A stretch of DNA of 64,000 bases from an uncultured Planctomycetales bacterium (GCA_964474085.1 CAYYRJ010000009.1:13570-77569); one strand, 5' to 3'. Shown: positions 1 to 64,000, counted from the first letter of the stretch. Numbers and translations: made by a program. The notes: generated by a model from the letters alone, not told the origin.

Positions 1-144
1 AATGATCCGCTCAAACCCTTGTTGCTTTAAATACCGCAGAATTTTGTTTAAAAACGGCTCATCCCCGACGGTCGCCATTGTTTTTTGCGCCTGACCGATT
101 GTTGAACGCAGTCGTGTGCCCAAGCCACCACAAAGAATAACCAT
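1..144 (-). CDS. Sugar-1-phosphate nucleotidyltransferase, N-terminal fragment (HddC/ManC-like); gene continues past the window start
   Basis: My translation of the minus strand from ATG at 142-144 gives MVILCGGLGTRLRSTIGQAQKTMATVGDEPFLNKILRYLKQQGFERII, the G-x-G-T-R-L pyrophosphorylase loop. Not in the ORF track because it is under 60 aa inside the window. An alternative in-frame ATG at 163-165 lies inside the family-1 repeat. Confidence 0.5.
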   Translation of the reverse strand, partial: MVILCGGLGTRLRSTIGQAQKTMATVGDEPFLNKILRYLKQQGFERII

Positions 145-162
145 GTCCGTTTTTGACAAGTC

Positions 163-360
163 CATTTAACCCAAATTTTGCATTACAACCTAGCGCGCGA
201 CGATCCGTCGCGCACAAAAAGAAAAGTGCAAAATTTGCCTCCGGTTGTCCCACAGGGACAAGGTTAACCCCGCACGTCTCGACGTTGTCGAGACATGCGG
301 CCCTTTGGGCGGATTTTGCTTTGGCCAAGCAGGAGCTTGGCTAATGCAAAATCCGGGTTT
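163..360. repeat. Family-1 structured repeat, copy A (about 198 nt)
   Basis: About 89% identical to the reverse complement of 15462-15690. Carries hairpins gcgcgacg/cgtcgcgc, ttgtccc/gggacaa and cgcacgtctcgac/gtcgagacatgcg, a nested stem cggattttgc...gccaagc-agga-gcttggc...gcaaaatccg, and complementary 5' and 3' ends. Confidence 0.8.
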
Positions 361-1357
361 AAGAAACCAATCCTGTGTTAGGTTGATAAAAAATAATTTG
401 GCTGCCTAAAGTTTCAAATTTAAATGGGATTTCGAGCAGATTTTTAAGCCGCTGACGAATTTTAGGCTGCAGCTCTGGGGCCGCAAATATTAAAACAAAT
501 CCGCCGCCGCCGGCGCCCAAAAGTTTTCCGCCCAAAGCCCCCGCATCTTTTGCTGTATTATAAATCTCGTCGATATGAGGTGTTGAAATTTTCTCCGAAA
601 GACTACGCTTTAATTGCCACGACTCATCAAGCAACTTTCCAAAGTCCAGAATATCGCCGCTTTTAAGGACAGCGAGCGCGTGTGTTGTTAAACCATAAAT
701 TTCATTAAGCTCCTTAACCTTGCTGGGAGTATTTTTAATCTGATGCGCCGCAATCTCGGACGCCGTGCGCGAGAATCCGGTAAAAAACATCATCAAATGC
801 GACTGTAACTCTTTGAGTCTTTCTGACCCGACGGTAACAAGCCGTACCTGAAGATGATTCGGGCCCCCAAACTCAATAAAATTAAACCCTCCGTACGCGG
901 CCAAAGTCTGGTCTTGGCAGCCGACATTCTCTTTGATCAAATCTTGTTCAATATGAATCGCTTCACGGGCCAATTGTTCCTTCGTCGGCATAATTCCTTT
1001 AAGCGCGTAAAGGCCGTTTAAAAGCCCGACGGTAAAAGAAGAACTCGAGCCTAAACCTGTTCGCGCCGGCAAATCCCCGTCATGATGAATTTCAATGCCG
1101 TCGTGAATATTTAAAAATTTCAAGACTTCGCGCACTGAAGGATGATCAATATCTTCGACTTTCTGCACATGTTCGGTCACCGAATAAATAATACGCGATT
1201 TATGCTCAAAAAACGGAGGCAAATAGCGGCAGGTAATATAACAATATTTGTCAATCGTCGTCGCTAAAACAGCGCCTTTGTGTTCTTGATACCACGCCGG
1301 ATAATCCGTTCCGCCGCCAAAAAACGACACGCGAAAGGGTGTACGAGAAATGATCAT
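359..1357 (-). CDS. GHMP-family sugar kinase, probably D-glycero-D-manno-heptose 7-phosphate kinase (HddA-like)
   Basis: PARTGLGSSSS ATP-binding motif and C-terminal GGKLLGAGGGGF glycine loop typical of GHMP kinases. Sits next to the HddC-like fragment. Confidence 0.65.
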   Translation of the reverse strand: MIISRTPFRVSFFGGGTDYPAWYQEHKGAVLATTIDKYCYITCRYLPPFFEHKSRIIYSVTEHVQKVEDIDHPSVREVLKFLNIHDGIEIHHDGDLPARTGLGSSSSFTVGLLNGLYALKGIMPTKEQLAREAIHIEQDLIKENVGCQDQTLAAYGGFNFIEFGGPNHLQVRLVTVGSERLKELQSHLMMFFTGFSRTASEIAAHQIKNTPSKVKELNEIYGLTTHALAVLKSGDILDFGKLLDESWQLKRSLSEKISTPHIDEIYNTAKDAGALGGKLLGAGGGGFVLIFAAPELQPKIRQRLKNLLEIPFKFETLGSQIIFYQPNTGLVS

Positions 1358-2874
1358 ACAAGCACCTTGGGTTCTAAAATCTTTCGTTTGAGTTTGATTT
1401 TTGTCGAGCGCAGCGTTTCTTCAACAGCAAGGTCTCCAAATTTTTTTTCGAGCAAATTTAAAAACTGCGGCGAAGTATGATACTGCATCCAGGCTTTATC
1501 CCTAAATTCCAAAACTTGATCGGCTGTTAAATATTTGGTCGGTAAAGGCTGAGCATTATAAGAATGTTGCGAAAATCCCGAATACGAATCCGGCAATTTC
1601 CATCCCGCCTTGCGCGCCTGTCCGTGCAGAGGACTGCCCGGATAAGCCATCGCCGAATAAAAGTTCGCTTCTTCCGTATTCATTTCAAGAGCTAAATCAA
1701 GCGTCATTTGCATGCTGGGAATATCATCTTCGGGAAGACCAAAGATATAATTGGCAATGACGTTAATATCGTGCGCCCGGATTTTTTTGACGACATCGCG
1801 GATGTCGACGTCTTCAAAACGGCCCTTGGTCACATCTTTACGCACGCGCGTGTTTCCGCTTTCAATGCCTAACGCCAGCCAATTGACACCGGCTTTTTTT
1901 AAAATGTCCAGATACTGTTCCTTGACCGTATCTACCCGCGAATAGCACCAAATATTAAATTTGTACCCTCGCTCAATGATCAGCTCACAAAGCTTCACAA
2001 AATGATTCGCGTTAAGGACAAACAGCTCGTCGGCGATTTTGATATTGGTAATTCCTTCATCAGCAAAGAAATCAAACTGCTTAATAATAAATTCCGGGTC
2101 CCAATAGCGGAAAACAGCGCTGCCGTCGGAGAATTCATTCTCCTGACGATTAATGATATTAATCATACAAAAAGAACATTTCATCGGACACCCTAAACTC
2201 GTATAAAGCGCGACAAAAGGCTGGCGCTTGATATGATTCGAATAGGAATGCCATAATGATGTCCGATAACGTTTCAAGGGCAACCGGTCCCAGGCAATGC
2301 CCGGAAGATCGTGGGGCAAGTTTTCTTTCGGCACAATCGGCGAAGGCGGATTCAAAATAATTTGGCCATCGGCCCGATACCCTAACCCTAAAACTTTATC
2401 GAGATTATCCTCAAGGTTAGTGCGAAGCAAATTTGAAATCGTATAGACCCCTTCGTTCTGGCAAACAAAATCAATATAACTGTGCCGCTCAAGAACTTCC
2501 CGCGGCAAAGCGGCGATATGCCCGCCGACAAAAAGGATTTTTGTTTCGGGAAGGTGCTTCTTGACAAGATCCGCTAAAGCAATCGCACCATCCATATTTT
2601 GAGAGCTCGCCGAAGGCTGCTGACCGTAAACAACAAAGCACGTCACTTTCGGATTAAGATCAGAAATATATTGAGTTGATTCAGCGTCGGAAAAAGAAAG
2701 CGCTTCGCTGTCTAAAATCGCAGCGCGAAAACCTTCTTTTAAACAGTGTGACGTCAACATGCCAGCCCAAATCGGCGGCTCAATGGCCGAATACACTGTA
2801 CTTAAATCCTGATAAACTTTATACGACGCATTCGCTTGGACAAAAAGAATATCGAGCTGTTTAAATGTTGGCAT
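1354..2874 (-). CDS. Class B (cobalamin-binding) radical SAM enzyme
   Basis: N-terminal B12-binding-like domain followed by a CPMKCSFC (CxxxCxxC) radical SAM cluster motif. 506 aa. Embedded in the nucleotide-sugar operon. Confidence 0.7.
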   Translation of the reverse strand: MPTFKQLDILFVQANASYKVYQDLSTVYSAIEPPIWAGMLTSHCLKEGFRAAILDSEALSFSDAESTQYISDLNPKVTCFVVYGQQPSASSQNMDGAIALADLVKKHLPETKILFVGGHIAALPREVLERHSYIDFVCQNEGVYTISNLLRTNLEDNLDKVLGLGYRADGQIILNPPSPIVPKENLPHDLPGIAWDRLPLKRYRTSLWHSYSNHIKRQPFVALYTSLGCPMKCSFCMINIINRQENEFSDGSAVFRYWDPEFIIKQFDFFADEGITNIKIADELFVLNANHFVKLCELIIERGYKFNIWCYSRVDTVKEQYLDILKKAGVNWLALGIESGNTRVRKDVTKGRFEDVDIRDVVKKIRAHDINVIANYIFGLPEDDIPSMQMTLDLALEMNTEEANFYSAMAYPGSPLHGQARKAGWKLPDSYSGFSQHSYNAQPLPTKYLTADQVLEFRDKAWMQYHTSPQFLNLLEKKFGDLAVEETLRSTKIKLKRKILEPKVLV

Positions 2875-3793: not shown

Positions 3794-3842
3794 AAAACAA
3801 TATCCTTTCTTAACATTCTTACTTTAATAATAATTTTATGGT

Positions 3843-3955
3843 TCGCTATAAGCCCTTCGGCTCAAAGGAACGGTCCCTGGTTGATGTCCCGCCTAACGGC
3901 GGGAGAAAATCAGGGCTGCGTTCAATTCGCCTTTAGGCTTATAGCAAACCAAGCA
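3843..3955. repeat. Family-4 structured repeat, copy a
   Basis: Conserved core cgaattgaacgcagccc.gattttctcccgccgttaggcggga..atc.acc.gggaccgttc..ttgagcc, shared with 63901-64000 in reverse complement. Closing stem gctataagcc/ggcttatagc is unique to this copy. Confidence 0.75.
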
Positions 3956-3972
3956 CCCCCAGATCACATCCA

Positions 3973-6084: not shown

Positions 6085-7050
6085 TTATCCTGTTTTTCTT
6101 AATTTGCCGCTATAGCCTTCTGCTTTAAACCAATCGAGCGTTTCTTGCAAACCTTGCTCAATATCTACTTTCGGTTGCCAGTTCAAATATTTTTTAGCCA
6201 GCGTAATATCCGGACAACGTTGTTTGGGGTCATCCACCGGAAGCGGACGATAAATCAATTTACTTTTTGCTCCCGAAAGTTTTAGAATCAACTTTGCAAA
6301 TTCAAGAATCGTAAATTCCGCAGGGTTTCCGATATTGACCGGTTCATGGACATCGCTATACAATAATCTCACAATCCCGTCGATCAAATCCGAATAAAAA
6401 CAAAAGGACCGCGTTTGTTTTCCGCTGCCATAAATCGTCAGCGATTGATGATGCAATGCCTGATCAATAAAATTTGGGACAACCCGTCCGTCCTTAACCT
6501 GCATCCGCGGACCGTAAGTATTAAAAATACGAACAATGGCAGTATTGACTTTGTGGGTGCGATGATACGCCATGGTCATCGCTTCCGCAAAACGCTTGGC
6601 TTCATCATAAACCCCGCGCGGACCGATGGTGTTAACATGGCCCCAATACGTTTCTTTTTGCGGATGCTCCAGCGGATCACCATAAATTTCAGAAGTCGAT
6701 GCGACTAAAAAACGCGCCTTTTTTAATTTTGCCAATACCAAACAATTTTCTGTGCCATATGATCCTACCTGCATGGTAGGGATCGGATATTTTAAATAAT
6801 CGACAGGGCTTGCGGGAGACGCAAAGTGCAAAATATAGTCAACGTCTCCGGCAATGGCAAAAGGCCGGCTGACATCTTTTTTGATAAAATCAAAATCCCT
6901 GGTTTTCTTTAAATGCGCGATGTTGCGCAAACGGCCGGTGAGCAAATTATCGACGGCAATAACCTTGCATCCGTCGGCTAAAAGCCGATCGCACAGATGG
7001 CTCCCCAAAAATCCCGCCCCGCCCGTCACAACTGCTACCTTTTTCTTCAT
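6085..7050 (-). CDS. UDP-glucuronate decarboxylase (UDP-xylose synthase)
   Basis: [16 protein letters not shown]...DNLLTGR...KKDV is typical of UXS/ArnA-decarboxylase-like SDRs. Lies immediately downstream of ugd. Confidence 0.8.
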
Positions 7051-7064
7051 AAAAAACCCTTCTA

Positions 7065-7100
7065 AACTCCCCCTCCCCCCTCTTTAGATAAAGAGGGGGA
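7065..7100 (-). terminator. GC-rich hairpin between the dehydrogenase and UXS genes (possible intra-operon attenuator or processing site)
   Basis: Perfect 10-bp stem cccccctcttt/aaagaggggg with a 5-nt loop. The T-run on the minus strand lies about 20 nt further 3', so it is not a textbook intrinsic terminator. Confidence 0.3.
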
Positions 7101-7118
7101 TTAAGGGGGCATTTGAAA

Positions 7119-8438
7119 TCAAAGTTTAATAATTTTCTTACTCTTCACACCATCAAAGACATTGCGCGTATCGAAAATCATTTTTGCCGACTTTAAAATC
7201 AGCTTGTAATTCACGTCGCTGTGATCTGTGGCGATCACAACACAATCAAACCCGGCGATATCCTTTGCTGTCAAAACAATTGACGCCAAATCGATCGTCC
7301 CAATTTTAAGATACGGAATAATCGGGTCAAAATACGAAACCCTAACCCCCTGAGCCTTAAAAAGTTCAATTAACCGAAGCGGCGGAGATTTGCGCAAGTC
7401 CTTCACATCTTTTTTATACGTCACCCCGACGACAAGAATCTTAGAATAAGCGAATTCTTTCTTTTGCTTTTCCAAAAGCTCTTTGATCCGCCCCAGCGCA
7501 TAAGAGGGCATATACGAATTGGTATCCGCCGAAAGCCGGATGTACTTGGAATTAAACCCATACTTCTTAGCTTTCCAATGCAAGTACAGAGGATCGTCGG
7601 GAATACAATGGCCACCGACGCCTAAGCCGGGATAAAAAGGCATAAACCCAAACGGTTTTGTTTTAGCTGCCGCAATGACTTCCCAAATGTCAATATGGAG
7701 CTTATGGCACATCATCGCCAGCTCATTGATCCAGCCGATATTAACAATGCGAAAAGAGTTTTCCAATAACTTGGTCATCTCAGCCGCGTCGGCAGATGAG
7801 ACCAAATGGACTTCTTTAATAATCGTCTGGTACAAAAATTTCGTCAGCTCTCCGCTTTTTTCGTCAATGCCGCCGACGATCTTCGGAATTTGTGTGACGC
7901 TGTATTTTTTGTTGCCCGGATCAATACGTTCCGGAGAAAACGATAAAAACAAATTCTTGCCAACAACAAGACCCGACTTTTCTAAAACCGGTTTGACCAA
8001 CTCGCGTGTGGTTCCCGGATAGGTCGTGCTTTCTAAAATAACGAGCGTATCTTTCTTGATATACTGGCCAACGGTTTTGACGGCATTGACAATAAAAGAA
8101 ACATCCGGCGTATATTTACGACGCAGCGGGGTTGGGACACAAATGATAATCACGTCCGCCATCTTTAAATGCGAAAAGTCGCTCGAGGCTGTCAATCGCC
8201 CATTATCAACAACGCGAACCAGATCCGCCGGTGCGATGTCGGCAATATAATTTTTCTTTGTCTTAACGCGCAGGACACGATCCGTGTCCATGTCAAGGCC
8301 AAAAACCTTAAAACCCGCCTTGGCAAAACTCACCGCCAAAGGCAAACCCACATAGCCAAGACCTAAAACAGCGACGAGTGCTTTTTTATTTAGGATTTTT
8401 TCGCTCAAAACTTTTGACATTCGTTTATCCTCTTTCAC
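7119..8438 (-). CDS. Nucleotide-sugar dehydrogenase, UDP-GlcNAc/ManNAc 6-dehydrogenase family (WecC/WbpA/TviB-like)
   Basis: VLGLGYVGLPLA N-terminal NAD fold and GLGVGGHCIP active-site Cys motif. Confidence 0.75.
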   Translation of the reverse strand: MKEDKRMSKVLSEKILNKKALVAVLGLGYVGLPLAVSFAKAGFKVFGLDMDTDRVLRVKTKKNYIADIAPADLVRVVDNGRLTASSDFSHLKMADVIIICVPTPLRRKYTPDVSFIVNAVKTVGQYIKKDTLVILESTTYPGTTRELVKPVLEKSGLVVGKNLFLSFSPERIDPGNKKYSVTQIPKIVGGIDEKSGELTKFLYQTIIKEVHLVSSADAAEMTKLLENSFRIVNIGWINELAMMCHKLHIDIWEVIAAAKTKPFGFMPFYPGLGVGGHCIPDDPLYLHWKAKKYGFNSKYIRLSADTNSYMPSYALGRIKELLEKQKKEFAYSKILVVGVTYKKDVKDLRKSPPLRLIELFKAQGVRVSYFDPIIPYLKIGTIDLASIVLTAKDIAGFDCVVIATDHSDVNYKLILKSAKMIFDTRNVFDGVKSKKIIKL

Positions 8439-12823: not shown

Positions 12824-12842
12824 GTCCCGTCCTATATTATCA

Positions 12843-12923
12843 GCCGATGCAGTCGTCCTTTTAAGGCGAATAGCGCCATAGAGGCGCCAAGCAATTGAGC
12901 CGAAAAAGGACGATTGCGTCGGC
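12843..12923. repeat. Family-2 structured repeat, copy a
   Basis: Core ttttaaggcgaatagcgccatagaggcgccaagcaattgagccgaaaaa enclosed by a roughly 21-bp stem gccgatgcagtcgtccttttt / aaaaaggacgattgcgtcggc with two G-T mismatches. Confidence 0.8.
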
Positions 12924-12936
12924 TAAACAATCATCT

Positions 12937-13060
12937 AGAGCGGCCCTTTGGGCCCTACGGTTTTGCGTAGGCCAAGCAGAAGCTTGGCTAATGCAAAATC
13001 CGGGTTGATTCTAACCTAAACGACAGGGGCTTTCAAGCTGATTAACCCGGATTTTGCATT
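12937..13060. repeat. Partial family-1 copy (3' module) with its own closing inverted repeat
   Basis: gcggccctttgggc...ggccaagcagaagcttggctaatgcaaaatccgggtt matches the 3' third of family 1. It is followed by aacccggattttgcatta, the exact complement of taatgcaaaatccgggtt. Confidence 0.7.
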
Positions 13061-13094
13061 AAAAAATGAAATACAAAATTTGGGATTAAAGCGA

Positions 13095-15461: not shown

Positions 15462-15690
15462 ATAAGGTTTAAAAAAAGACCCGTATTTTAACCCGGCTTT
15501 TGCATTAGCCTCGCTCCAACGAGGCCAAGCAAAAGCCGCCCAAAGGGCCGCATGTCTCGACACCGTCGAGACGTGCGGGGTTAACCTTGTCCCTGCGGGA
15601 CAACCAAAGGCAAATTTTGCATTTCCATTTTTGTGCGCGACGGATCGTCGCGCACAAGGTTGTAATGCAAAATTTGGGTTTAAGAGCGAG
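15462..15690. repeat. Family-1 structured repeat, copy B (inverted relative to copy A)
   Basis: Its reverse complement aligns to 163-360 at about 89%. Substitutions in the nested stem are compensatory: cggCttttgc/gcaaaaGccg versus cggAttttgc/gcaaaaTccg, and gcctcg/cgaggc versus gccaagc/gcttggc. Confidence 0.8.
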
Positions 15691-22629: not shown

Positions 22630-22729
22630 TTCTCCTGAACTTGCCGCTTTGGGCATCCCTTTTTCGGCTCAATTGTTTGGCGCCTCTATGGCGCAATTCG
22701 CCTTAAAAGGGCTGCCCAAATCAGCAAGC
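22630..22729. repeat. Family-2 structured repeat, copy b (reverse orientation)
   Basis: Core ggctcaattgtttggcgcctctatggcgcaattcgcctt inside a stem cttgccgctttgggcatccctttt / aaaagggctgcccaaatcagcaag with 3 mismatches. Confidence 0.8.
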
Positions 22730-30550: not shown

Positions 30551-31831
30551 TCAAACTTTTAGACTAAATTTTTGCAATAGTCCTGCAAATTTTTTGGGCA
30601 ATGAAGCCGACAATCGCACCGCATCAGCGTCGTAGGCGATCGCATGGACATGCCCTTCTTTATGCGCAAGATTAACCAAGTCCATACGATCAAGCGGCAG
30701 CGCAACTTCTATGGTTTCCATCAAAGAAGCAAGCTGAAATTCAATTTCAGCTAACAAACCAGAAATATTTTCTGCGCTTAAGGCCGAAATTGCAACTGGA
30801 TTTTTAAACGACTGTTTGATTTGTGAAACAACGCTTCTGTCGCTTAACTGGTCGATCTTGTTTAAAACAGTAATCATTGGCTTGTCATGCGCGTCAAGCT
30901 CACGCAAGACCGCCATGACGGAATCATAAAGATTACGAAATTTTGGGTGGCTGACATCTAAAACATGAACAAGCAAATCCGCGCTGGCCGTTTCTTCCAG
31001 AGTTGCTTTAAACGATTCGATCAAATGGTGCGGCAATTCGTGCAAAAACCCGACGGTATCCGAAAGAATAATTTTTTGGTGATTGGGCAAAACCAATTGG
31101 CGCGACAAAGAATCCAGCGTTGTAAAAAGTCCATTGTGCGTCACCTGCCCGGCATGAGTCAGGGTGTTTAAAAGAGTGGATTTGCCTGCATTCGTGTAGC
31201 CTACAAGCGAAACAAGCGGCACCCCGTCGTCCTGGCGTTTTTTCCGCCGCAACAAACGGTCCTCACTCACATCTTTTAAATCGTGACGTAAACGATCCAC
31301 CCGTTCACGGATTTTGCGCCGGTCCATCTCAAGTTTTGTTTCGCCCGGGCCCATCGTGCCGATGCCGCCGCCTAAACGGGACATTTCAATTCCATGACCG
31401 ACTAAACGCGGCAAAAGGTATTCCAACTGCGCAAGCTCAACCTGCATTTTGCCTTCCTGGCTTTTGGCCCGTCGGGCAAAAATGTCTAAAATCAACTGCG
31501 TGCGGTCAATGACCTTTTTGCCAATCGCTTCTTCAAGATTACGCAATTGATTACCCTTTAAATCATGATTAATAATCACCGTGTTAATATCTTTGGCGAC
31601 GCACAGATCGGTAATTTCCTTGACCTTGCCTTCGCCTAAAAACAAACTCGGAGTAATCTGGTCAAGCCGGGTCAAAACTTTGTCGACGACAACGCCGTAA
31701 CAGGCGGTGACTAATTCTTCCATCTCAAGGGCCAAATCGTCAAACGTCCAATTGCTGCGCTCTGTTTTAAGCTGGACGACGACCAACAAAACTTTTTCGA
31801 GTGATTTCATATTTTCCTTAATATCCGCCAT
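30551..31831 (-). CDS. hflX: GTPase HflX
   Basis: GGIGTMGPGETKLE motif and G-domain GYTNAGKSTL. Start reset to ATG at 31829-31831; the ORF track used an upstream TTG. Confidence 0.9.
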   Translation of the reverse strand: MADIKENMKSLEKVLLVVVQLKTERSNWTFDDLALEMEELVTACYGVVVDKVLTRLDQITPSLFLGEGKVKEITDLCVAKDINTVIINHDLKGNQLRNLEEAIGKKVIDRTQLILDIFARRAKSQEGKMQVELAQLEYLLPRLVGHGIEMSRLGGGIGTMGPGETKLEMDRRKIRERVDRLRHDLKDVSEDRLLRRKKRQDDGVPLVSLVGYTNAGKSTLLNTLTHAGQVTHNGLFTTLDSLSRQLVLPNHQKIILSDTVGFLHELPHHLIESFKATLEETASADLLVHVLDVSHPKFRNLYDSVMAVLRELDAHDKPMITVLNKIDQLSDRSVVSQIKQSFKNPVAISALSAENISGLLAEIEFQLASLMETIEVALPLDRMDLVNLAHKEGHVHAIAYDADAVRLSASLPKKFAGLLQKFSLKV

Positions 31832-31940
31832 GTGCAAATTTTATTTACTGACTTGAGAAGTCCTTTTAAGGCGAATGGCGCCATAGAGGCGCAAAACAAT
31901 TGAGCCTAAAAGGACTTCCCAAGTCGGCTTAACTTGCACA
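31831..31940. repeat. Family-2 structured repeat, copy c
   Basis: Core ttttaaggcgaatggcgccatagaggcgcaaaacaattgagcctaaaa inside stem gacttgagaagtcctttt / aaaaggacttcccaagtc, extended by tgtgcaa...ttgcaca. Spans from the hflX ATG (31831) to the miaA stop. Confidence 0.8.
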
Positions 31941-32861
31941 TCGCGTTAATATATTTAATATTGGTCCGGCGAGATCTTCGGCGTTGTCTTTATCATCAGC
32001 CTCTAGCCAGTTAATCCGTTTATCCTTACGAAACCACGTCAATTGCCGTTTGGCCAAATTACGCGTATTTTTCTTTATCAATTCTTTTGCGGCCGCAAGA
32101 TCGTATTGACCGTTTAAATAGGCCAGAATTTCGCCCACGCCAATCATCCGGCTGGCGGTCAAACTCAATTTCCGGCCCCGGATTGCCTTAACTTCGTCAA
32201 CCAAACCGTCAGAAAACATTTTTTCGACACGCCTGTTGATCCGCTCATAGAGCTTTTCACGTTCCCGATCAAGTCCAAAAATCACGACGGGACAATGCCC
32301 CCAAAGTCCACAGCGTTTTTTTTGCAACTCTGATATCGGGATTTTTGTCGACTCAAAAACTTCCAAAGCCCGGACAATGCGCCGGCTGTCATTAGCATGA
32401 ATCTTGGATGCGGCCTGAGAGTCAATATTTTTTAACTGCTGATACAAAACGCCGGGGCCCTGTGTTGAGGCGATCTTTTGCAGCTTTTGGCGCAAATCCA
32501 TATCCACCCCTTGAGTTTCAAAAATCCCGTCGAGCAAAACCTGCACATACATCCCGCTACCTCCGACGACAAGAGGATGTTTTCCTTTTGCCATAATCGT
32601 GTCGATAGCCAAACGCGCCGCCTTATTAAACATCGCCACATCAAATTTTTCCTCAACACAAACAACATCCAACAAATGATGGGCAACACTTTTACGTTCA
32701 TCTAAGGAAGGCTTGCTCGTCGCAATCGAAATTTCTCGATAAACCTGCATCGAATCGCACGAAACAATTTCGCAAGGCAAATGACGCGCCAGCGCCAGGG
32801 CAACATCCGTTTTTCCGACCGCTGTTGCTCCGACTAAAAAAATTATGGTTTGGGGATTCAC
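31929..32861 (-). CDS. miaA: tRNA dimethylallyltransferase
   Basis: P-loop GATAVGKT and DSMQVY motif. Confidence 0.9.
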   Translation of the reverse strand: MNPQTIIFLVGATAVGKTDVALALARHLPCEIVSCDSMQVYREISIATSKPSLDERKSVAHHLLDVVCVEEKFDVAMFNKAARLAIDTIMAKGKHPLVVGGSGMYVQVLLDGIFETQGVDMDLRQKLQKIASTQGPGVLYQQLKNIDSQAASKIHANDSRRIVRALEVFESTKIPISELQKKRCGLWGHCPVVIFGLDREREKLYERINRRVEKMFSDGLVDEVKAIRGRKLSLTASRMIGVGEILAYLNGQYDLAAAKELIKKNTRNLAKRQLTWFRKDKRINWLEADDKDNAEDLAGPILNILTRCAS

Positions 32862-33717: not shown

Positions 33718-33749
33718 TTTAAATTCAGGCCGCGCGGCCTGAATTTAAA
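33718..33749. terminator. Palindromic hairpin downstream of the metB-like gene
   Basis: tttaaattcaggccgcg/cgcggcctgaatttaaa forms a perfect 16-bp palindrome between convergently terminating transcription units. Confidence 0.45.
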
Positions 33750-34901: not shown

Positions 34902-34980
34902 GGTTTAGGATTCTCCTTGATTATTTTCTAACGCTAAAACTGTTAGACACGATAAACTGCTGACGAGGATTTGTCAATTG

Positions 34981-38895: not shown

Positions 38896-38914
38896 TGCTG
38901 TTCTCGTTTCTAAT

Positions 38915-39030
38915 AATGGCGGTTAGGGATGAGCTTCCAAAGCGAGTTCCGCAGCCTAGGCGCTTACCTAAAGCTCTCAATAAGGGTAAGCGACTAGTGC
39001 GAGGACTGTTTGAGCGACGAAGGTCACTCC
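38915..39030. repeat. Family-3 long-hairpin repeat, copy b (subfamily 1, reverse orientation)
   Basis: Core nearly identical to copy a in reverse complement. Unique outer stem aatggcggttagg/cctaaccgccat. Confidence 0.8.
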
Positions 39031-39045
39031 TAACCGCCATCGCAA

Positions 39046-40284: not shown

Positions 40285-40307
40285 GCTCTGCCTCTTTCTA
40301 AAATTAT

Positions 40308-40390
40308 TCCGTAAATTACTGATTAAGGAAGTCCTTTTTAGGCTCAATTGTTTCGCGCCTCTATGGCGCTATTCGCCTTAAAAGGACTTC
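40308..40390. repeat. Family-2 structured repeat, copy d (reverse orientation)
   Basis: Core ggctcaattgtttcgcgcctctatggcgctattcgcctt inside a perfect 20-bp stem ctgattaaggaagtccttttt / aaaaggacttccttaatcag. Confidence 0.85.
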
Positions 40391-40434
40391 CTTAATCAGC
40401 TTAAACCTTACCTTATCAATTCATCGTTTTAAAT

Positions 40435-41988: not shown

Positions 41989-41995
41989 CTTTAAC

Positions 41996-42123
41996 GAGGC
42001 TATTGCGGTAACCTTCGTCGCTCGAACAGTCCTCGCGCACACCGCTTACTCTAAATTTAAAAGACAAACAGGTAAGCGGCGTGGCTGCGGAACTCGCTTG
42101 GGAAGGTCACCGCAACAGCCTCG
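41996..42123. repeat. Family-3 long-hairpin repeat, copy c (subfamily 2)
   Basis: Same conserved arms. Inner stem is cacaccgcttac/gtaagcggcgtg. Unique outer stem gaggctattgcggtaacc/ggtcaccgcaacagcctc. Confidence 0.8.
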
Positions 42124-42138
42124 CAATTAAAAATTCCC

Positions 42139-44943: not shown

Positions 44944-44952
44944 ATTAATTTC

Positions 44953-45084
44953 GAGTGGTTGTTAAAGTATCCTTCCTAAGCGAGTTCCGCAGCCACGCCG
45001 CTTACCTGTATGCCTTTAAAATTCAGAGCAAGTGGCGTGCGCGAGGACTGTTTGAGCTAAGGAAGGATGCTTTAACAGCCACTC
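44953..45084. repeat. Family-3 long-hairpin repeat, copy d (subfamily 2, reverse orientation)
   Basis: Conserved arms in reverse complement. Unique outer stem gtggttgttaaagtatccttcc/ggaaggatgctttaacagccac, about 22 bp with two T/C differences. Confidence 0.8.
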
Positions 45085-45093
45085 ATAAACATT

Positions 45094-52411: not shown

Positions 52412-53551
52412 TTGCGCCAGTTTTGCCTATATGTTACGATGTTGCCCATGTTAAACAAGATCAAAAAACAAATCGACCGAAGCCTTGAACGCTTTTTAGA
52501 CAAAATCAAAATTGACTACAAACTACATTTAGTCGATCCTATCCTCTATGAAAGTATCCGCGAATTTTCACTGCGCGACGGCAAACGGATCCGTCCGATT
52601 CTTTTAGCCTTAAGCTACAAAGGTTACCGCACAGACACAGCGCCTATGTCACCGTCGATTTATTATGCTTCGACGTGCATTGAGCTTTTGCATAACTTTA
52701 TGCTTATCCACGATGACATCATTGACCGCTCGGACCTTCGCCGTGGAAAACCGACACTGCACCGACTTTTAGAAAAAGCGGCGGATATCCCCGAGCACAA
52801 ACGCTTAGGCTGCGATTTGAGCATCGTTGCCGGAGACATCGTTTATGCTTTGGCGATCGATGCCTTTTTATCAATCAACGAGGATCTTAAGCGCAAAGAA
52901 CGGGCGCTCAAATATTTTATCCAAACTGCTGTTTTTACCGCAATGGGCGAGTTTGCCGATACGCTTCACGGTGTAAGAGGACTTAACAGAGTCAGCGAAA
53001 AAGATGTATTTTTAAATTACACCCTAAAAACCGCACGCTACACGTTTGACTGCCCTCTTGTCGTCGGAGCTATTTTAGCCGGCGCAGACAACAAAGACAT
53101 TAAAGCGCTCTCGAAACTGGGGCTTTTGATCGGCCAGGCTTTTCAAATCCAGGATGATGTGATCGGAATTTTTGACACCGAAAAAAATATCGGCAAATCA
53201 ATTTTAAGCGACCTAACAGAATCTAAAAAAACGATTTTAGTCTGCCATGCCTACCGCGTTCTCAAAGGAAAAGCCCGGGAGAAATTCCTGAAAATCTTTT
53301 TGAAGAATAAAAAAACCTACGCTGATCTCATCGCCGTGCGTCAAATTTTTGTTGAAGCAAAAAGTCTAAGTTATAGCTTAGAACAAATCAATATTCGCTT
53401 AGATCAAGCGCTTAAAATTTTGCGCAATTTAAAAATGGCGCCCAAATACAAAAACCTTATCGAAAAATGCCTTTTCCAACTTTTTAAACACAGCGAAAAT
53501 TTAAACCAGCAGTATCAACAACCCAACACAGCTGCATCCGCAAAAAAATAA
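52412..53551 (+). CDS. Polyprenyl diphosphate synthase (trans-isoprenyl diphosphate synthase family)
   Basis: First Asp-rich motif LIHDDIIDRSDLRRGKPT and second motif FQIQDDVIG. The true start may be ATG at 52439. Confidence 0.8.
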   Translation: MRQFCLYVTMLPMLNKIKKQIDRSLERFLDKIKIDYKLHLVDPILYESIREFSLRDGKRIRPILLALSYKGYRTDTAPMSPSIYYASTCIELLHNFMLIHDDIIDRSDLRRGKPTLHRLLEKAADIPEHKRLGCDLSIVAGDIVYALAIDAFLSINEDLKRKERALKYFIQTAVFTAMGEFADTLHGVRGLNRVSEKDVFLNYTLKTARYTFDCPLVVGAILAGADNKDIKALSKLGLLIGQAFQIQDDVIGIFDTEKNIGKSILSDLTESKKTILVCHAYRVLKGKAREKFLKIFLKNKKTYADLIAVRQIFVEAKSLSYSLEQINIRLDQALKILRNLKMAPKYKNLIEKCLFQLFKHSENLNQQYQQPNTAASAKK

Positions 53552-57024: not shown

Positions 57025-57130
57025 ATGACTTTAAGGGCCGCTAACGTGAGGCCCCAAAGAATGTCAAAGCCCTCCATAGCGAGGCGAAATGTTTCTTGTC
57101 CCAAAATCCTCTTGCCTTTATACTAAACGC

Positions 57131-59452
57131 ATGCCTAAATCCGGTTCAAAAAATAGCCTTATAAAAATATTTTTTTTCTTGGGTCTTTTGTTATGCGCGG
57201 CTTTTTATGATGTTGTTTTCCTAAACAAAACATTAAAAGTCACGACGGCCAATTCGCAAGCTCTGCCAAATGGTGTTTACGGTCAAGAGCACAACAAGCC
57301 CCGCTTTATTCCGGCCAATGGCACCGATGCGCCTGTTTCAGAAGAGCCGATTTATGAATTTATAAAGCAAAATCTCCGACGAGGAATCTTGCCTTTATGG
57401 AATCCCCATCAAGCCTGCGGCTACTCTTTGATCGGAATGCTTGAGGTGGGGATTTTTTATCCGCTGACTCTAATCGTCTATTTACTGCCTAATATCGTGT
57501 CCATTGACATTTTGATTTTAAGCCGTCTTCTGCTCGCCGGTTTGTTTACGTTTTGGTTTATGCGCCGTATCGGCTTTAAAGATCCGCCCGCTTTTTGCAG
57601 TGCACTCGTTTTCATGTTAAGCGGGCCGATGGTTTTGTTGCAATACTGGACAGCCAACGTGGATCTTTTACTTCCTTTGCTGCTTATCGCGCTTAACCGC
57701 CTTATTATTAGAGAAGCCAGCCGTCATTCTCTTGCAACATTAGCACTGGTCATCAGCTTAACGATTTTTGCCGGCCATCCGGAACACGTTTTTTTTGTCA
57801 ATGTTGTTGGTTTTGTTTTTTTTGTTTTTCAAACATTTTCCCTAAGTTCAAAAAATAATTACAAAAAATTATTTCTCTCTTATACAGGCGCTTACCTGCT
57901 AGGAGCGGCACTTGCATCAATCGTCCTTTTTCCTTTCTTGAGAAATCTCGTCGGAGAATTCTGGAGCGGCCATCCTGCGGGCACAGGCCTTTTGATGGAA
58001 GAACAAAGGGACCGTGCTTTAAGCTTAGCTTTGCCACATTTTTTCCAAAAAGAAAACCTTACCTTTGATTTTACGTTTGCCGGCTGGTGGGGCGGATATT
58101 TAGGGACGCTGCCTTTGGCTTTGACTTTTTTAAGTCTTTTTAATAACCACAAAAAAGGGCTCAATTATTTTTTTATGCTCCTTTTACTGCTGATTCTCAG
58201 CAAAGCTTATGGCCTGCCATTTATTAACTGGATCGGCCACCTGCCAATATTTGATACATGCCGCTATGCGATTCATACGCCACCCTTAGCAGCGTTTTGC
58301 GTCGCTGTTTTAAGCGGGATGGGCTTTCGTTCGATAACCAGTTCTAAAAAGTTATTCTTTAAAGCACTTATTTTTACTCTCGGCCTTTTAATAATCGTCG
58401 GCACTCATCTTTATATTCTTCGCCATGCCACGCATTTTCATATTTCACTAGCTGCAAGCGTCTTTGCTTTTTTTCTGCTTCTGATATTCCAAATTATCCT
58501 AGTACTTAAGGACCGACGCCTCTTAAAAAGGAAATCTTTAAGCATTGTCCTTTTGGTCCTTATCTTTTTAGAATTATTTCTCTACATTCACCGCGAACAT
58601 CCCAAACGGTTTGACTCTTTTGCCAAAGTGCCTTACATCGAATTTTTAAAATCACGCAATGAACCTGCGCGCAGCTACGGCATCTTTTGGGCATTTTACC
58701 CAAATACAGCAACTGGTTTTGGCGTTGATGACTTAGGTTATTTTTTAGGACTTGTCCCGACGAGATTTGTAGACTTTGTCAACGCTCTGGTCATCGAAAA
58801 CCATTTCCAAAAAGATTTGCGGCCTCCCGCCTTGCGTGCGATGCCCATTGAAAACAAGCGCCATTACATACTCGATCTGCTGGGCGTTCGTTACATTGTC
58901 GCACCACCAAAAATGAATTTAGAAAATCTGCTTAAACTGACAGCTGTCTATCAAAAAGAAGTTGTTATTTTTGAACGTCCAACCGCATTCCCGCGCGCTT
59001 ACGTTGTACACCGCGCAATTTTCGAACCCGACAAAACAAAATCTCTGAATTTAATCGGACGTCTTAGTACCGCCGGCCGACAAGGCATTATTATCAGCGA
59101 TCCTGACAACCAAAACCTTTCGGCACAGCTTAACAACACACCCATCGAAGATGCTTCAATCGTCAAAATGAACCACGAAAACCCTAACGAAATTTTTCTG
59201 ACCGCGCGAATGGAACATCCCGGTTTTGTTGTCCTCACGCAATCGTATCACCCCGATTGGAAAGTTACGATCGACGGGAAGAATGCAAAAGTTTTTCAAA
59301 CAAATTATCTTATGCGTAGCGTCTTTGTCCCCGAAGGAATACACGAAATCCAATTTAAATTTATACCGTTGTCGTTCTATGCAGGAGTGATGGTAAGTTT
59401 TATCTCATTGTTTTTTCTTGTCGGCCTATTAACCTTCCCTGAAAAAAAATAA
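57131..59452 (+). CDS. Large polytopic membrane protein, YfhO/ArnT-like putative glycosyltransferase
   Basis: Start taken at ATG 57131 (MPKSGSKNSLIKIFFFLGLL). About 13 TM helices with a WNPHQACGYSLIG motif and a roughly 250-aa C-terminal soluble domain. 773 aa. Confidence 0.5.
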   Translation: MPKSGSKNSLIKIFFFLGLLLCAAFYDVVFLNKTLKVTTANSQALPNGVYGQEHNKPRFIPANGTDAPVSEEPIYEFIKQNLRRGILPLWNPHQACGYSLIGMLEVGIFYPLTLIVYLLPNIVSIDILILSRLLLAGLFTFWFMRRIGFKDPPAFCSALVFMLSGPMVLLQYWTANVDLLLPLLLIALNRLIIREASRHSLATLALVISLTIFAGHPEHVFFVNVVGFVFFVFQTFSLSSKNNYKKLFLSYTGAYLLGAALASIVLFPFLRNLVGEFWSGHPAGTGLLMEEQRDRALSLALPHFFQKENLTFDFTFAGWWGGYLGTLPLALTFLSLFNNHKKGLNYFFMLLLLLILSKAYGLPFINWIGHLPIFDTCRYAIHTPPLAAFCVAVLSGMGFRSITSSKKLFFKALIFTLGLLIIVGTHLYILRHATHFHISLAASVFAFFLLLIFQIILVLKDRRLLKRKSLSIVLLVLIFLELFLYIHREHPKRFDSFAKVPYIEFLKSRNEPARSYGIFWAFYPNTATGFGVDDLGYFLGLVPTRFVDFVNALVIENHFQKDLRPPALRAMPIENKRHYILDLLGVRYIVAPPKMNLENLLKLTAVYQKEVVIFERPTAFPRAYVVHRAIFEPDKTKSLNLIGRLSTAGRQGIIISDPDNQNLSAQLNNTPIEDASIVKMNHENPNEIFLTARMEHPGFVVLTQSYHPDWKVTIDGKNAKVFQTNYLMRSVFVPEGIHEIQFKFIPLSFYAGVMVSFISLFFLVGLLTFPEKK

Positions 59453-60564: not shown

Positions 60565-60580
60565 CAGCGCAGCACGTGTT

Positions 60581-60754
60581 TTATGACTTTTTTTCGTCGG
60601 AATCTTTTTTTTCGTCCTCGCCTTTAAGGGCTTTCTGAAATTCACGAATCGCTTTGCCTAATGAACTGCCGATTTCAGGAAGACGCTTAGAGCCGAAAAG
60701 AAACAGGATCACAACCAAGATCAAAAGTATTTCTAAAAACCCTAAATTGCCCAT
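60581..60754 (-). CDS. tatA: Twin-arginine translocase subunit TatA/E
   Basis: My translation: MGNLGFLEILLILVVILFLFGSKRLPEIGSSLGKAIREFQKALKGEDEKKDSDEKKS. Canonical TatA (TM, FG.KLP, amphipathic helix). Absent from the ORF track because it is under 60 aa. Confidence 0.8.
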   Translation of the reverse strand: MGNLGFLEILLILVVILFLFGSKRLPEIGSSLGKAIREFQKALKGEDEKKDSDEKKS

Positions 60755-60784
60755 AACGATAACTCCCTTAAAAAAATTTTTATA

Positions 60785-61384
60785 TTAATCCGGTTTGACC
60801 TGATAGTAATCACGGCTAAACTCCGTGAGTTTTTTGTCAACTGGCTCAACGTAAGAAACAACATCCAGCGCCGATGTCACCTTCACGGTTCCGACTCTTT
60901 TATCTGCCTCAAAAACCCCTAAGCGGACTCCTTTCGTCACGCCGTTTAAAACACCCAGCGTAACCATCGCATTCCCAGACTTGCGGTTGATCCATAAGGA
61001 ACCTTCTTTGCGGTCAGCCTCGCTTTCTCCGTGAACTTTTTCGGAAGCACGGACAACTTTTTCTAAATCAAGAACCCGGCCGACCTGCTGCTGCAATTCT
61101 TCTTTTTGGCTTGTAGCCGCTTGTTTTTCGGTACTTACCAGCAGAAGTTTTTCATTTAGGTCTTTGACTTCAACTTCCTTTGCGCTTTGTGCATTGACGG
61201 TCAAGTACAATAAAAAAACCGCCCCTAAAAATGAAACAAAAATAAAAACAAGACCCGTAAAAATTTGTTTTTTCCCGTCGGGAAAAGCCGGCGGTTTAGA
61301 CGCCAAAACAGCGGCCTTTGGCGCCCCTTTAGGTGCCGGCACAATAGGTTGCGCATCTTTTTTCCCAAAAGAAGGAAATTTCAT
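60785..61384 (-). CDS. Hypothetical membrane-anchored protein with coiled-coil region
   Basis: Pro/Ala-rich N-terminus, one TM helix and a coiled coil. No assignable domain. Confidence 0.45.
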   Translation of the reverse strand: MKFPSFGKKDAQPIVPAPKGAPKAAVLASKPPAFPDGKKQIFTGLVFIFVSFLGAVFLLYLTVNAQSAKEVEVKDLNEKLLLVSTEKQAATSQKEELQQQVGRVLDLEKVVRASEKVHGESEADRKEGSLWINRKSGNAMVTLGVLNGVTKGVRLGVFEADKRVGTVKVTSALDVVSYVEPVDKKLTEFSRDYYQVKPD

Positions 61385-61480
61385 AGCGTTATCTTATCAC
61401 AACTTTAAACTGCGGCTGACAACAAAAATACCGTTTATCCTAGCAACAGAAAACCCTATCTATAGAGATGGGGTGGCGCT

Positions 61481-62755
61481 TCACTTTCTGCCCAGCAAGG
61501 CAAACATCTTGGTTTTGTAGGCCTCCACTCCAGGCTGATTAAACGGATTGACCCCCATCAGATAACCGGTCAGGGCGACGGATTTTTCATAAAAATAAAA
61601 TAACTGGCCTAAAGTATACGCGTCAAATTTAGGCAGAGTGATTGTCATGTTCGGGACCCCGCCCTCGAAATGCGCCATAGCCGTGGCCTTGTAGGCCTGC
61701 TCATTGACCCAATCTAAATTTTTTCCGGCGACACAATTAAAATTGTCCTGATTCTTTTTGTCTTTAGGAACAAGTATTTTGCATCCGGTGTCTTTCACAA
61801 CGAGAAACGTCTCAAAAAGATTTCGTTCCCCTTCCTGAATCAACTGGCCCATCGAGTGCAGATCGGCCGTAAAATTAACCGACGCAGGAAAAATCCCTTT
61901 GCCCTCTTTGCCTTCGCTTTCGCCAAAAAGCTGTTTCCACCACTCGCCGATAAAATCCATCTCTTCATAAAAAAACGCCTTTATTTCAATGACCTTCTTT
62001 TGCTTATACAAAAGATAGCGGCTGGCTGCATATTGCCAAGCCATATTTTTTTCCAAGTCCGCTTGCCCAAGTTCTTTTTCGGCATCAGCGGCACCCTTAA
62101 TTAGAGAAGCTATGTCAATACCGGCCATAGCCAGCGGCACTAAGCCTACCGGAGCCAGAACAGAAAACCGCCCGCCGATATCATCGGCAATCGGATACGT
62201 GCGGTAGCCCTCATCATTAGCTATCGAGCGCAATGCGCCTTTTTTCTCGTCGGTAATGCAGATGATTCTTTGTTTTAACTGGGCGGCGGAATATTTGCTT
62301 TCCATAAATTTTTTGACGAGCCGAAACCCTAAAGCTGGCTCAGTCGTCGTGCCCGACTTAGAAATCACAAGCACGGCCACGCGCTTGTTTTTTAATTTCG
62401 CAAAGAGATTCTGAAAATACCCAGAGCTTAGGTTGTGCCCGGCGTAATAAACGGGAATCTTTTGCTCACGAGACAAAAAATCCAAGGCCGCGCGAATACC
62501 GATATAGGAACCGCCAATACCAATTGAAATAATGCAATCTGAATTCTTACGAACTTTTTCACCCAAAACTTTCAGTTGGGCTAAAAGTTTTTTGTCGGTT
62601 TGGCTTGGCAGATTCAGCCAGCCGGTAAACTCGCTTCCCTTGCCTTGGCGAGAATGCAAATCCTCGTGGGCTTTTTGCAATTGAGGGACAAGCGCCTGCA
62701 AATCTTTTTTTTCAACAAAACCTTTTAAATTTGCCAAATCTAAACTGATCTTCAT
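61481..62755 (-). CDS. pgi: Glucose-6-phosphate isomerase (short bacterial/archaeal type)
   Basis: SIGIGGSYIG and GGRFSVLAPVGL PGI motifs. 424 aa. Confidence 0.85.
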   Translation of the reverse strand: MKISLDLANLKGFVEKKDLQALVPQLQKAHEDLHSRQGKGSEFTGWLNLPSQTDKKLLAQLKVLGEKVRKNSDCIISIGIGGSYIGIRAALDFLSREQKIPVYYAGHNLSSGYFQNLFAKLKNKRVAVLVISKSGTTTEPALGFRLVKKFMESKYSAAQLKQRIICITDEKKGALRSIANDEGYRTYPIADDIGGRFSVLAPVGLVPLAMAGIDIASLIKGAADAEKELGQADLEKNMAWQYAASRYLLYKQKKVIEIKAFFYEEMDFIGEWWKQLFGESEGKEGKGIFPASVNFTADLHSMGQLIQEGERNLFETFLVVKDTGCKILVPKDKKNQDNFNCVAGKNLDWVNEQAYKATAMAHFEGGVPNMTITLPKFDAYTLGQLFYFYEKSVALTGYLMGVNPFNQPGVEAYKTKMFALLGRK

Positions 62756-62767
62756 ATCAATCCTTTC

Positions 62768-63883
62768 TTAGCTTTCACATTTGATCGGCTCTTCTATTGT
62801 GGCTCCACCTAAGACCACGTCCCCGTCATAAAAAACGACCGACTGACCCGGCGTCACCGATTTTTGCGGTTCATAAAAATCCAAACGAACTGAATCTTGA
62901 CCTAAATACGTCAACCGCGCTTTGACAAGTTCTGCATTATAACGAATACGGGCCGCAACCTCAATTGTCGTTTGAGGAATATCCATACTGACAGGATTAA
63001 AATTGCTGGCCAACAGTCCCGCAGAATACAACATCGACAAAGGCCCGACATAAACCGTGTTCGTTTCTTTTTCAATTTTATAAACATACACCGGCACGCC
63101 TAAAGCAATCCCTAACTTATCGCGCTGTCCGATCGTATAATTGGCAATTCCCTGATGCTGCCCGACAATTTCGCCATGCTCATTTTTAAATGGCCCAGGG
63201 ACAAAGACAGCGTTACCGACGCGCTGACGGATAAATTCTTTATACCCGCCGTCGGGGACAAAACAGATATCCTGACTCTCAGCTTTCTCGGCGGTGTTTA
63301 ACTGATATTTTCGTGCTAATTCGCGGACTTGGGCCTTATTCAAATCGCCTAAAGGAAACAGCACTTTGGGCAATGTTTCTTTGGCCATACTATAGAGAAA
63401 ATAGCTTTGGTCTTTGCGCTCGTCAACAGCTTTATAAAGTTCATACCGATTCTTTTGCGCATTAAAAACAATTTTTCCATAATGACCCGTCGCCAAAAAT
63501 TCGCCCCCCATCGCCATGACTTTCTTATAAAGCGAACCGAATTTCAAATGCTGATTGCAGCGCACACACGGATTAGGCGTGCGCCCGTTTAAATATTCAT
63601 TGGTAAAGTCCTCAATGATAAAATCATTGATGTCCGCCGCAAAATCCAAAACATAATGCGGGATATCCAAAATCTGCGCCGCCCGACGAGCATCCGTAAT
63701 GCCGTCGACCCCGCAGCAAGAAGGCTTTTTGCTGTTGGGATGCGATATGCTAAAGCACATCGTAACGCCCACAACATCATGCCCAGCCTCTTTCATAAGG
63801 CCGGCAACGACCGAGGAATCTACCCCACCGCTCATCGCGACAAAAACTTTTTTAGAATTCTTCTTATTCATATTAAGACTCAT
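62768..63883 (-). CDS. mnmA: tRNA-specific 2-thiouridylase MnmA
   Basis: PP-loop VFVAMSGGVDSSV plus catalytic Cys residues. Confidence 0.9.
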   Translation of the reverse strand: MSLNMNKKNSKKVFVAMSGGVDSSVVAGLMKEAGHDVVGVTMCFSISHPNSKKPSCCGVDGITDARRAAQILDIPHYVLDFAADINDFIIEDFTNEYLNGRTPNPCVRCNQHLKFGSLYKKVMAMGGEFLATGHYGKIVFNAQKNRYELYKAVDERKDQSYFLYSMAKETLPKVLFPLGDLNKAQVRELARKYQLNTAEKAESQDICFVPDGGYKEFIRQRVGNAVFVPGPFKNEHGEIVGQHQGIANYTIGQRDKLGIALGVPVYVYKIEKETNTVYVGPLSMLYSAGLLASNFNPVSMDIPQTTIEVAARIRYNAELVKARLTYLGQDSVRLDFYEPQKSVTPGQSVVFYDGDVVLGGATIEEPIKCES

Positions 63884-63900
63884 GTCTTCTTGAGAATTTA

Positions 63901-64000
63901 GGGTAAGTCCGAACGGCGAATTGAACGCAGCCCCGATTTTCTCCCGCCGTTAGGCGGGAATCTACCGGGGACCGTTCATTGAGCCGGCAGGACTTGCCCT
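63901..64000. repeat. Family-4 structured repeat, copy b (reverse orientation relative to copy a; reaches the window edge)
   Basis: Core matches the reverse complement of 3843-3955. Closing stem gggtaagtcc/ggacttgccc. The internal stem ccccg/cgggg replaces ccctg/caggg of copy a, a compensatory change. Confidence 0.75.

Follow-up and report, generated by a model that had tools for sequence, protein, structure and literature searches.

The 64,000-nt stretch of DNA analysed here in its entirety, hereafter the window (GCA_964474085.1, CAYYRJ010000009.1:13570-77569), was deposited as uncultured Planctomycetales bacterium and carries four families of structured repeats, A to D, in the spacers between its genes. 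Repeat finding and BLAST place 13-14 copies in 11 spacers, occupying about 1535 nt or 2.4% of the window, in agreement with an original prediction of 13 copies in 4 families at the same coordinates and a density of about 1.5 kb (about 2.4%). Every element forms a fold much more stable than that of shuffled sequence (z -5 to -9.6), and both orientations are seen in each family, as had also been proposed. The favoured reading, to which a probability of roughly 0.6 is attached, is that B, C and D are small non-autonomous mobile hairpins of 80-130 nt, comparable to repetitive extragenic palindromic (REP) sequences, REPINs and miniature inverted-repeat transposable elements (MITEs), that A is a conventional MITE, and that these elements have colonised the very short spacers among the housekeeping genes of a single lineage of Omnitrophota, the group to which the window is assigned.

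The genes of the window are housekeeping genes only, with no transposase or mobile-element gene detected by Pfam and NCBIfam scans of the window open reading frames (ORFs). They include sugar-nucleotide enzymes, two GGDEF proteins, ugpC, an accD-like gene, DUF1015 and a Zn-ribbon protein, followed in this account by dnaJ, dnaK, grpE, clpB, hflX, miaA, a metB-like gene, nrdR, glyA and rpiB, and by a sua5-phosphatase fusion, purE, purM, purQ, tatC and mnmA. Nearly all are encoded on the - strand, the only two sizeable genes of the + strand lying at 52412-53551 and 57089-59452. The G+C content is 44.7%, and since the GC skew is uniformly negative, at a constant value of about -0.12, the window lies within a single replichore. 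The repeats are located as follows.

170..357, + strand: A1, full copy of family A, 188 nt, with TTAA-type flanks and several internal hairpins
3839..3951, - strand (the better-folding strand): D1, family D, a 113-nt hairpin
12842..12924, + strand: B1, family B, an 83-nt hairpin 18 nt upstream of the start codon of a ROK kinase
12940..13004, + strand: partial copy of family A, the right-end hairpin module, about 65 nt
13046..13084, - strand: mini-derivative of family A, two terminal inverted repeats joined by about 10 nt
15492..15678, - strand: A3, full copy of family A, 187 nt, opposite in orientation to A1 and 89-92% identical
22640..22728, - strand: B2, family B, between the dnaJ stop and Zn-ribbon gene start codons
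31850..31925, + strand: B3, family B, 'B-long' subfamily, between the miaA stop and hflX start codons
34990..35114, - strand: C1, family C, a 125-nt hairpin 5 nt from the upstream stop codon and 88 nt from the metB-like start
38916..39040, + strand: C2, family C, between the glyA stop and nrdR start codons
40319..40399, - strand: B4, family B, between the rpiB stop and the true glyA start codon (40284)
41996..42122, - strand: C3, family C, between the purE stop and the sua5-fusion start codon (41988)
44953..45084, + strand: C4, family C, between the purQ stop and purM start codons, 9 nt from each
63900..64000, + strand: D2, family D, 101 nt, 16 nt upstream of the mnmA start codon and ending at the window edge

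An invariant 24-nt segment of the B core occurs 46 times in 43 related loci (denoted by L numbers) from five species-representative metagenome-assembled genomes (MAGs), all of them Candidatus Omnitrophota, uncultured, small-celled bacteria with compact genomes. Several of these loci are syntenic with the window at a nucleotide identity of 76-100%. The DnaK protein of the window has no exact counterpart on record. Identity at the 4-fold degenerate sites of dnaJ between the window and L018, L024 and L009 is 71%, 47% and 35%, respectively, and such low values indicate that the deeper comparisons are near saturation. Three of the five MAGs are titled 'uncultured Planctomycetales' and yet are syntenic with the window at a DNA identity of 83-100%; they have the B repeat in common with two MAGs named Candidatus Omnitrophota, and one of this pair, JACKFI, shows synteny with the window at 76-82%. 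This pattern suggests that the Planctomycetales titles may be a labelling discrepancy.

The conserved part of the hairpins is an asymmetric central core, which is invariant in sequence in B and partly common to B and D. In B it extends over about 47 nearly invariant nucleotides (AAGGCGAATnGCGCCATAGAGGCGCnAAACAATTGAGCC) and consists of a 5-bp hairpin, an asymmetric internal loop and a GGC/GCC stem, flanked on either side by arms of about 21 bp; it also holds the dyad GCGCC-N5-GGCGC. Sequence beyond the arms is unrelated between copies. The arms themselves need only pair. In a covariance-model alignment of 45 B copies from six genomes, which was itself fitted to the model, 97.3% of arm cells are standard pairs, as opposed to 75.8% in shuffles (0 of 500 reaching the observed value) and 32-51% in slid controls. 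All 21 outer-stem pairs are changed on both sides, and compensatory changes occupy 267 cells where 67.5 would be expected. An independent alignment of arm against arm yields 898 Watson-Crick pairs among 986 aligned positions. The stem covariation that had been claimed is thus genuine and strong.

The same layout of variable complementary arms around a conserved irregular core is found in C (five copies) and D (two copies). The core of C2 is 94% identical to that of C1 and the arms of the two are unrelated, the inner stem of C3 carries a compensated change relative to both, and in D1 variable outer arms (GCTATAAGCC / GGCTTATAGC) surround a conserved core that contains the inner hairpin TCCCGCC-GTTA-GGCGGGA. 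B and D have exact blocks of 11 nt and 10 nt in common (AAGGCGAATTG and TTGAGCCGAA), located on either side of the core base, and both keep the internal-loop module GGCGAAUUG / CAAUUGAGCC. A common origin of C with B and D is not supported, as local alignment scores lie within the shuffle range and the similarity of C to D is no greater than chance. The view that the elements form one system of related structures stands for B and D, which share this basal module, whereas the relatedness of C and A to them is not demonstrable. Separately, a diverged B copy at L035 7888-7987 retains a GGCGAATT...CAAACAATTGAGCC module, and in it the inner hairpin GCGCC-ATAGA-GGCGC has been exchanged, with full compensation, for GTCCC-TTAGTTA-GGGAC.

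Family A is different in kind, having 16-nt terminal inverted repeats (CCCAAATTTTGCATTA / TAATGCAAAATCCGGG in A1), TTAA-type flanks, internal hairpins and short derivatives. The motif CCC[AG][AG]ATTTTGCATTA marks the two termini of A1 and A3, of the copy in L024 and of the short derivatives. Conserved terminal repeats are lacking in B, C and D, among which nothing recurs at the ends except a terminal GC and A/T-rich flanks.

The mismatches that do occur in the arms are not distributed evenly between the two strands. On the element's own strand, the arms of B contain 49 G.T and 6 A.C mismatches, and the covariance-model alignment gives 61 and 13, with 37 copies favouring G.T and 3 favouring A.C; counted as distinct combinations of column and type, the numbers are 22 and 9. 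The bias is the same in copies that are sense (18:2) and antisense (15:2) with respect to the flanking genes, the two orientations themselves being represented by 16 and 14 copies, but it is gone when the mismatches are counted on the mRNA strand (about 20:17). Likewise, one family-specific strand folds better in 4/4 copies of C and 2/2 copies of D, and the preferred strands of ten B, C and D copies are divided 5:5 between + and - within one replichore. Since the G.T bias follows the element strand in sense and antisense copies alike, and since the preferred strands are evenly split, pairing is selected on a single element-defined strand, and neither on the host transcript nor on one replication strand.

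RNA helices are classically recognised by a preference for G.U over A.C such as that on the element-defined strand, and each hairpin might accordingly be regarded as a small RNA gene, or a processed structured RNA, of its own strand, whose core binds a protein and which forms a dispersed multicopy family. The compensated replacement of GCGCC/GGCGC by GTCCC/GGGAC in L035 and the conservation of the GGCGAAUUG / CAAUUGAGCC module in B and D would both be expected of such an RNA. However, no conserved promoter or terminator lies beside the copies, in keeping with the unrelated sequence outside the arms, and the only transcription in evidence runs opposite to about half of the copies. The density of four B copies in 64 kb is high, no Rfam family matches, and the enrichment at contig ends, the truncated copies and the filled and empty sites described below fit mobile DNA instead. 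This explanation is consequently considered distinctly unlikely.

Comparison with the related loci shows that gain, loss and copying affect the hairpin as one unit together with its arms. L012 possesses a complete B hairpin with both arms at a site that is empty in its orthologue in L004, with about 20 extra nt of difference; since the empty site has neither arm, both are part of what was inserted. One related MAG has, at different loci, four B-long copies whose arms are nearly identical. These copies lie at L004 ~320-415, L005 ~1850-1946, L042 ~7044-7139 and L043 ~577-672. Two other origins of the arms, insertion of a core into a pre-existing palindrome or terminator and inverted duplication of target DNA, were considered and rejected, as the empty L004 site contains neither arm and the B-long arms travel with the core.

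Losses and gains are also evident at other sites. One B copy in L012 is truncated in the middle of the core and one in L013 is decayed, both at sites where intact copies exist in other genomes, and at the four sites that can be scored free of the bias introduced by core matching, the orthologue is decayed, diverged, truncated or absent. For family A, L024 carries a 189-nt element between a terminator-like hairpin with a T-run and the DUF1015 start, and the site is empty, with an A-run, in the window and in L018; the flanks are TAA/TTAA-like, and the direct repeat is ambiguous. The distant syntenic relatives L045, L054, L047, L046 and L044 contain none of the elements and have spacers of 18-40 nt at the junctions compared (rpiB-glyA, glyA-nrdR, purE-sua5 and purQ-purM), each of which measures 150 nt in the window. 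A metagenome search with GlyA, a protein too conserved for this purpose, retrieved no locus with the elements, the best match being 74% identical, and supplied distant syntenic outgroups. The number of B-core loci per genome is uneven, 22 of the 43 coming from one MAG and 3 from a MAG with about 490 kb in three matching contigs, and hardly any copy of C or D lies outside the window.

Four of the spacers discussed here, 38896-39045 (glyA-nrdR), 40285-40434 (rpiB-glyA), 41989-42138 (purE-sua5) and 44944-45093 (purQ-purM), are each 150 nt from stop to start and lie within 6 kb, although this figure depends on the start codons chosen; their elements differ in family, size and offset. In another spacer, 12824-13094 (271 nt), B1, the partial A copy and the 39-nt A mini-element are nested together; it is 100% identical to L003, in a syntenic region of 8 kb that averages 88%. 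At L054 7059-7154, a different 96-nt hairpin with perfect 26-bp arms beginning with GTAG, and thus REP-like, follows purM, and the window has no spacer at the matching junction.

Orientation is as labile as presence. Among 21 orthologous pairs with a B copy in both genomes, 11 have the same orientation and 10 are flipped. The site orthologous to B2, downstream of dnaJ, is filled in L018, L009 and L024, and in the last of these the whole hairpin is inverted, its idiosyncratic arm mismatches included. In L001, L013 and L038, a site-specific junction signature is kept in both orientations, which suggests flipping in place. Between L014 (5899-6025) and L029 (5566-5691), where the flanking genes are about 99% identical, a 127-nt B spacer is hypervariable, differing in orientation, in five compensated arm positions, in core variant and, to the left and right of the element, in some 20 nt of the near flank. 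A single clean inversion of the whole spacer does not account for this pair, as flipping raises identity within the hairpin only and not in the near flanks.

Irrelevance of orientation to persistence would also be expected if the repeats were DNA-level sites of the host, bound or cleaved without regard to orientation by, for instance, a nucleoid, gyrase-like, replication or repair protein, a role that has been proposed for REP and BIME, with gene conversion keeping the core and template switching the arms. The dyad GCGCC-N5-GGCGC in the core of B is compatible with such a site, as is the uniformity of the core across neutrally saturated genomes while the arms drift and yet remain complementary. 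Neither a double-stranded site nor template switching, however, gives any reason for an excess of G.T over A.C that is tied to one strand. Moreover, the copies are dispensable at orthologous sites, and family abundance differs widely between close relatives. Host sites of this type are therefore the least probable of the explanations weighed here.

With regard to the genes, all copies in the window are intergenic, so that the expectation that none would lie in a coding sequence holds for the elements proper. It needs qualifying for the outer helix of B3 (31829-31943), which overlaps the ends of both neighbours and includes the last four codons and stop of miaA as well as the ATG of hflX. This B-long outer helix reads ..ATGTGCAAGTT / AACTTGCACAT.., the other arm holding the hflX ATG. 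Gaps to the adjacent codons are short, as had been noted: 5-20 nt is common, C3 lies 16 nt and 7 nt from its neighbouring codons, and B3 directly follows the miaA stop codon. Spurious N-terminal ORF extensions into the elements were likewise found where they had been reported, comprising 21 extra codons for glyA, 18 for the sua5 fusion and 2 for hflX; by homology, the true starts of these genes are downstream of the elements. For the B copies of the relatives, crude ORF calling gives 30 co-directional, 2 convergent and 2 divergent spacers; 5 further copies reach no more than the very end of a maximal ORF, and 11 of 50 are at contig ends.

The original prediction also stated that the copies always lie between co-directional genes. 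This is true of the window but uninformative, since 53 of its 57 junctions are co-directional and 11 random junctions would all be so with P = 0.41. Co-directional placement is a by-product of gene-strand bias. Two further intergenic features were observed. A promoter-like sequence, TTGACA-17-TATCGT (34949-34977, - strand), which agrees at 10/12 positions and is the best such match in 30-46 kb, sits between C1 and the metB-like start codon, in spacer sequence that is unique. In addition, a lone perfect 32-nt palindrome outside families A-D (TTTAAATTCAGGCCGCGCGGCCTGAATTTAAA, 33718-33749) is present in a 117-nt spacer before the metB-like cluster.

Every copy is part of a transcribed gene array, 5-35 nt from stop or start codons, and its stem is long and stable on either strand. 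The hairpins could therefore be cis-acting RNA elements of operon mRNAs that tune the neighbouring genes, whether as stems for RNase III or stems that block exonucleases, as processing sites or as terminators. The sequestration of the hflX start codon in the outer helix of B3 would accord with this role, and so would the orthologous sites that stay filled across deep divergence. Against it, orientation relative to transcription is random (16:14) and is flipped in 10/21 orthologous pairs, and the mismatch bias tracks the element strand and not the mRNA strand (about 20:17). A simple stem function does not account for the invariant asymmetric core, orthologous sites include some where the copy has been lost, cut short or has decayed, and distant relatives have the same operons with 18-40 nt spacers. 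Intrinsic, Rho-independent termination in particular was rejected, as the stems have no T-run: of the six elements in 30-46 kb, 0 were flagged as terminators, and their flanks are devoid of T-runs. A cis-acting function is thus regarded as unlikely. The original prediction had coupled a resemblance to REP, BIME, ERIC and Correia repeats, which is right for interspersed palindromic repeats of this type, to roles in mRNA stability, processing or termination, and it is this host-mRNA role that the data do not support.

For the mobile hairpins favoured here, a mechanism can be outlined in which the core would be the recognition module for a hypothetical trans-acting enzyme encoded elsewhere in the genome. 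Its substrate would be the folded single strand of one particular strand. Single-stranded DNA (ssDNA) is the first guess, as for IS200/IS605 TnpA, RAYTs and integron integrases, with an RNA copy less likely. Arm mismatches would be tolerated only as G.T(U) on the recognised strand; indeed, recognition of the core in a single strand would lead to a fixed core, to arms that need only pair, and to the survival of G.T(U) defects alone. Copies would either flip in place or be replaced at the same site, and flipping or re-insertion would randomise their orientation with respect to transcription and replication. Any effect on host mRNA of a 25-30 bp stem between cistrons would be a side effect and not the reason for persistence.

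Several observations weigh against mobile hairpins. Neither the window nor about 260 kb of related loci yielded a transposase or HUH-type gene; a crude HUH motif screen of the window and the 43 loci was negative, as was a screen of them for multicopy ORFs. The search for a cognate protein such as a RAYT-like transposase, which the original prediction had proposed, thus came back empty from the motif screen of these sequences. IS200/IS605-type ssDNA transposons are usually biased towards one replication strand, whereas the present elements are not, and flipping would need to have erased any such bias. B, C and D have no clean target-site signature, their TA/TTAA-like flanks being inseparable from an extension of the stem. 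Furthermore, a B copy with an intact core occupies the same site downstream of dnaJ in four genomes near neutral saturation (35-71%), and this site and the junction signature of L001, L013 and L038 look like long maintenance in situ, which a purely selfish element does not predict. Finally, the related loci were retrieved by exact match to the core, so that core conservation outside the window is inflated.

A more tentative possibility, which at present is doubtful, is that B, C and D represent an unrecognised class of hairpin built inside-out relative to REPINs, MITEs and attC sites, with a strand-specific recognition module at the tip, a free stem and flipping in place. Certain copies may have been kept in situ from a time before the species separated; these could be retained by the host, or even be invertible, phase-variable structured elements, as opposed to parasites in decay.

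The claim that the elements are undescribed agrees with searches of several kinds. Rfam 15 gave 0 matches at gathering scores and nothing convincing at permissive E-values, the best sub-threshold match being the rhtB small RNA on B4 (28.5 bits against a threshold of 55, E = 0.72). Viral contigs scanned with the B, C and D cores gave 0 matches, and the literature on Omnitrophota repeats yielded neither a description of such elements nor a published account of Omnitrophota repeat content. While interspersed palindromic repeats are well known as a general phenomenon, the set is undescribed for Omnitrophota, and its inside-out architecture, strand-tied wobble bias and flip-flop behaviour are unusual.

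The hairpins constitute a natural data set for an architecture that has been little studied, with an invariant tip and free stems, in which the wobble pairs of each copy record the strand that is read. A mobilising enzyme would have to recognise the folded single strand from the top of the hairpin and not from its ends. On a practical level, the repeats break MAG assemblies, many copies lying at contig ends, and they affect annotation both through false N-terminal extensions (glyA, sua5 and hflX) and because the elements can supply stop or start codons, as at miaA/hflX. Stems of 25-30 bp between the cistrons of core operons (the dnaK-dnaJ region, pur and glyA), in either orientation, may plausibly influence expression, processing or translation; the outer helix of B3 covers the hflX start codon.

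Among known systems, REPINs are hairpin-forming REP doublets whose movement depends on RAYT transposases (Bertels and Rainey 2011, PMC3116915). The B, C and D elements are like them in being extragenic hairpins of about 80-120 nt with many copies per genome and compensated stem changes, in presumably acting as a single-stranded hairpin, and in existing as a population of variants with defunct remnants. In REPINs, however, the ends (inverted 16-mers, or REP sequences) are conserved and the middle is variable (PMC3116915), whereas the present elements have variable ends around an invariant middle. The long hairpin, the compensatory changes and the confinement to extragenic DNA are all found in B, but in place of conserved ends its outer stem varies at 21/21 pairs around an invariant central 47 nt, and C and D behave likewise. 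Also unlike REPINs, there is no conserved terminal motif of the GTAG type, and no RAYT gene was found in the window and 43 loci.

Classical bacterial MITEs, such as Correia/NEMIS, ERIC and Nezha-type elements, have terminal inverted repeats and a TA/TTAA duplication. Family A conforms to this type in its 16-nt terminal inverted repeats, deletion derivative, occurrence in both orientations and intergenic location, and its TTAA-type flanks and single pair of filled and empty sites would accord with it. B, C and D resemble MITEs in size range, intergenic location and co-transcription with their neighbours. Conserved terminal repeats, though, are restricted to A, and the conserved sequence of B, C and D is internal, asymmetric and strand-specific.

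Integron attC sites, for example the 120-nt VCRs, are imperfect hairpins of 60-140 nt that are recognised as a folded single strand, with structure mattering more than sequence, and like the present elements they are located between co-directional genes. Their outer R and L boxes are conserved and the centre varies, and they lie in one orientation per array among promoterless cassettes near an integrase. By comparison, the elements described here have a variable hairpin base, mixed orientation and housekeeping neighbours (dnaK/J, clpB, glyA and pur), and no integrase; the first three of these properties led to the rejection of attC sites as an identification. The 'flip-flop' inversions of hairpin loops in chloroplast spacers, and the template switching of quasi-palindromes, concern unique local hairpins. 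They too have an asymmetric centre within inverted arms and appear in both orientations at orthologous sites, but B, C and D differ from them in being a dispersed multicopy family with an invariant core.

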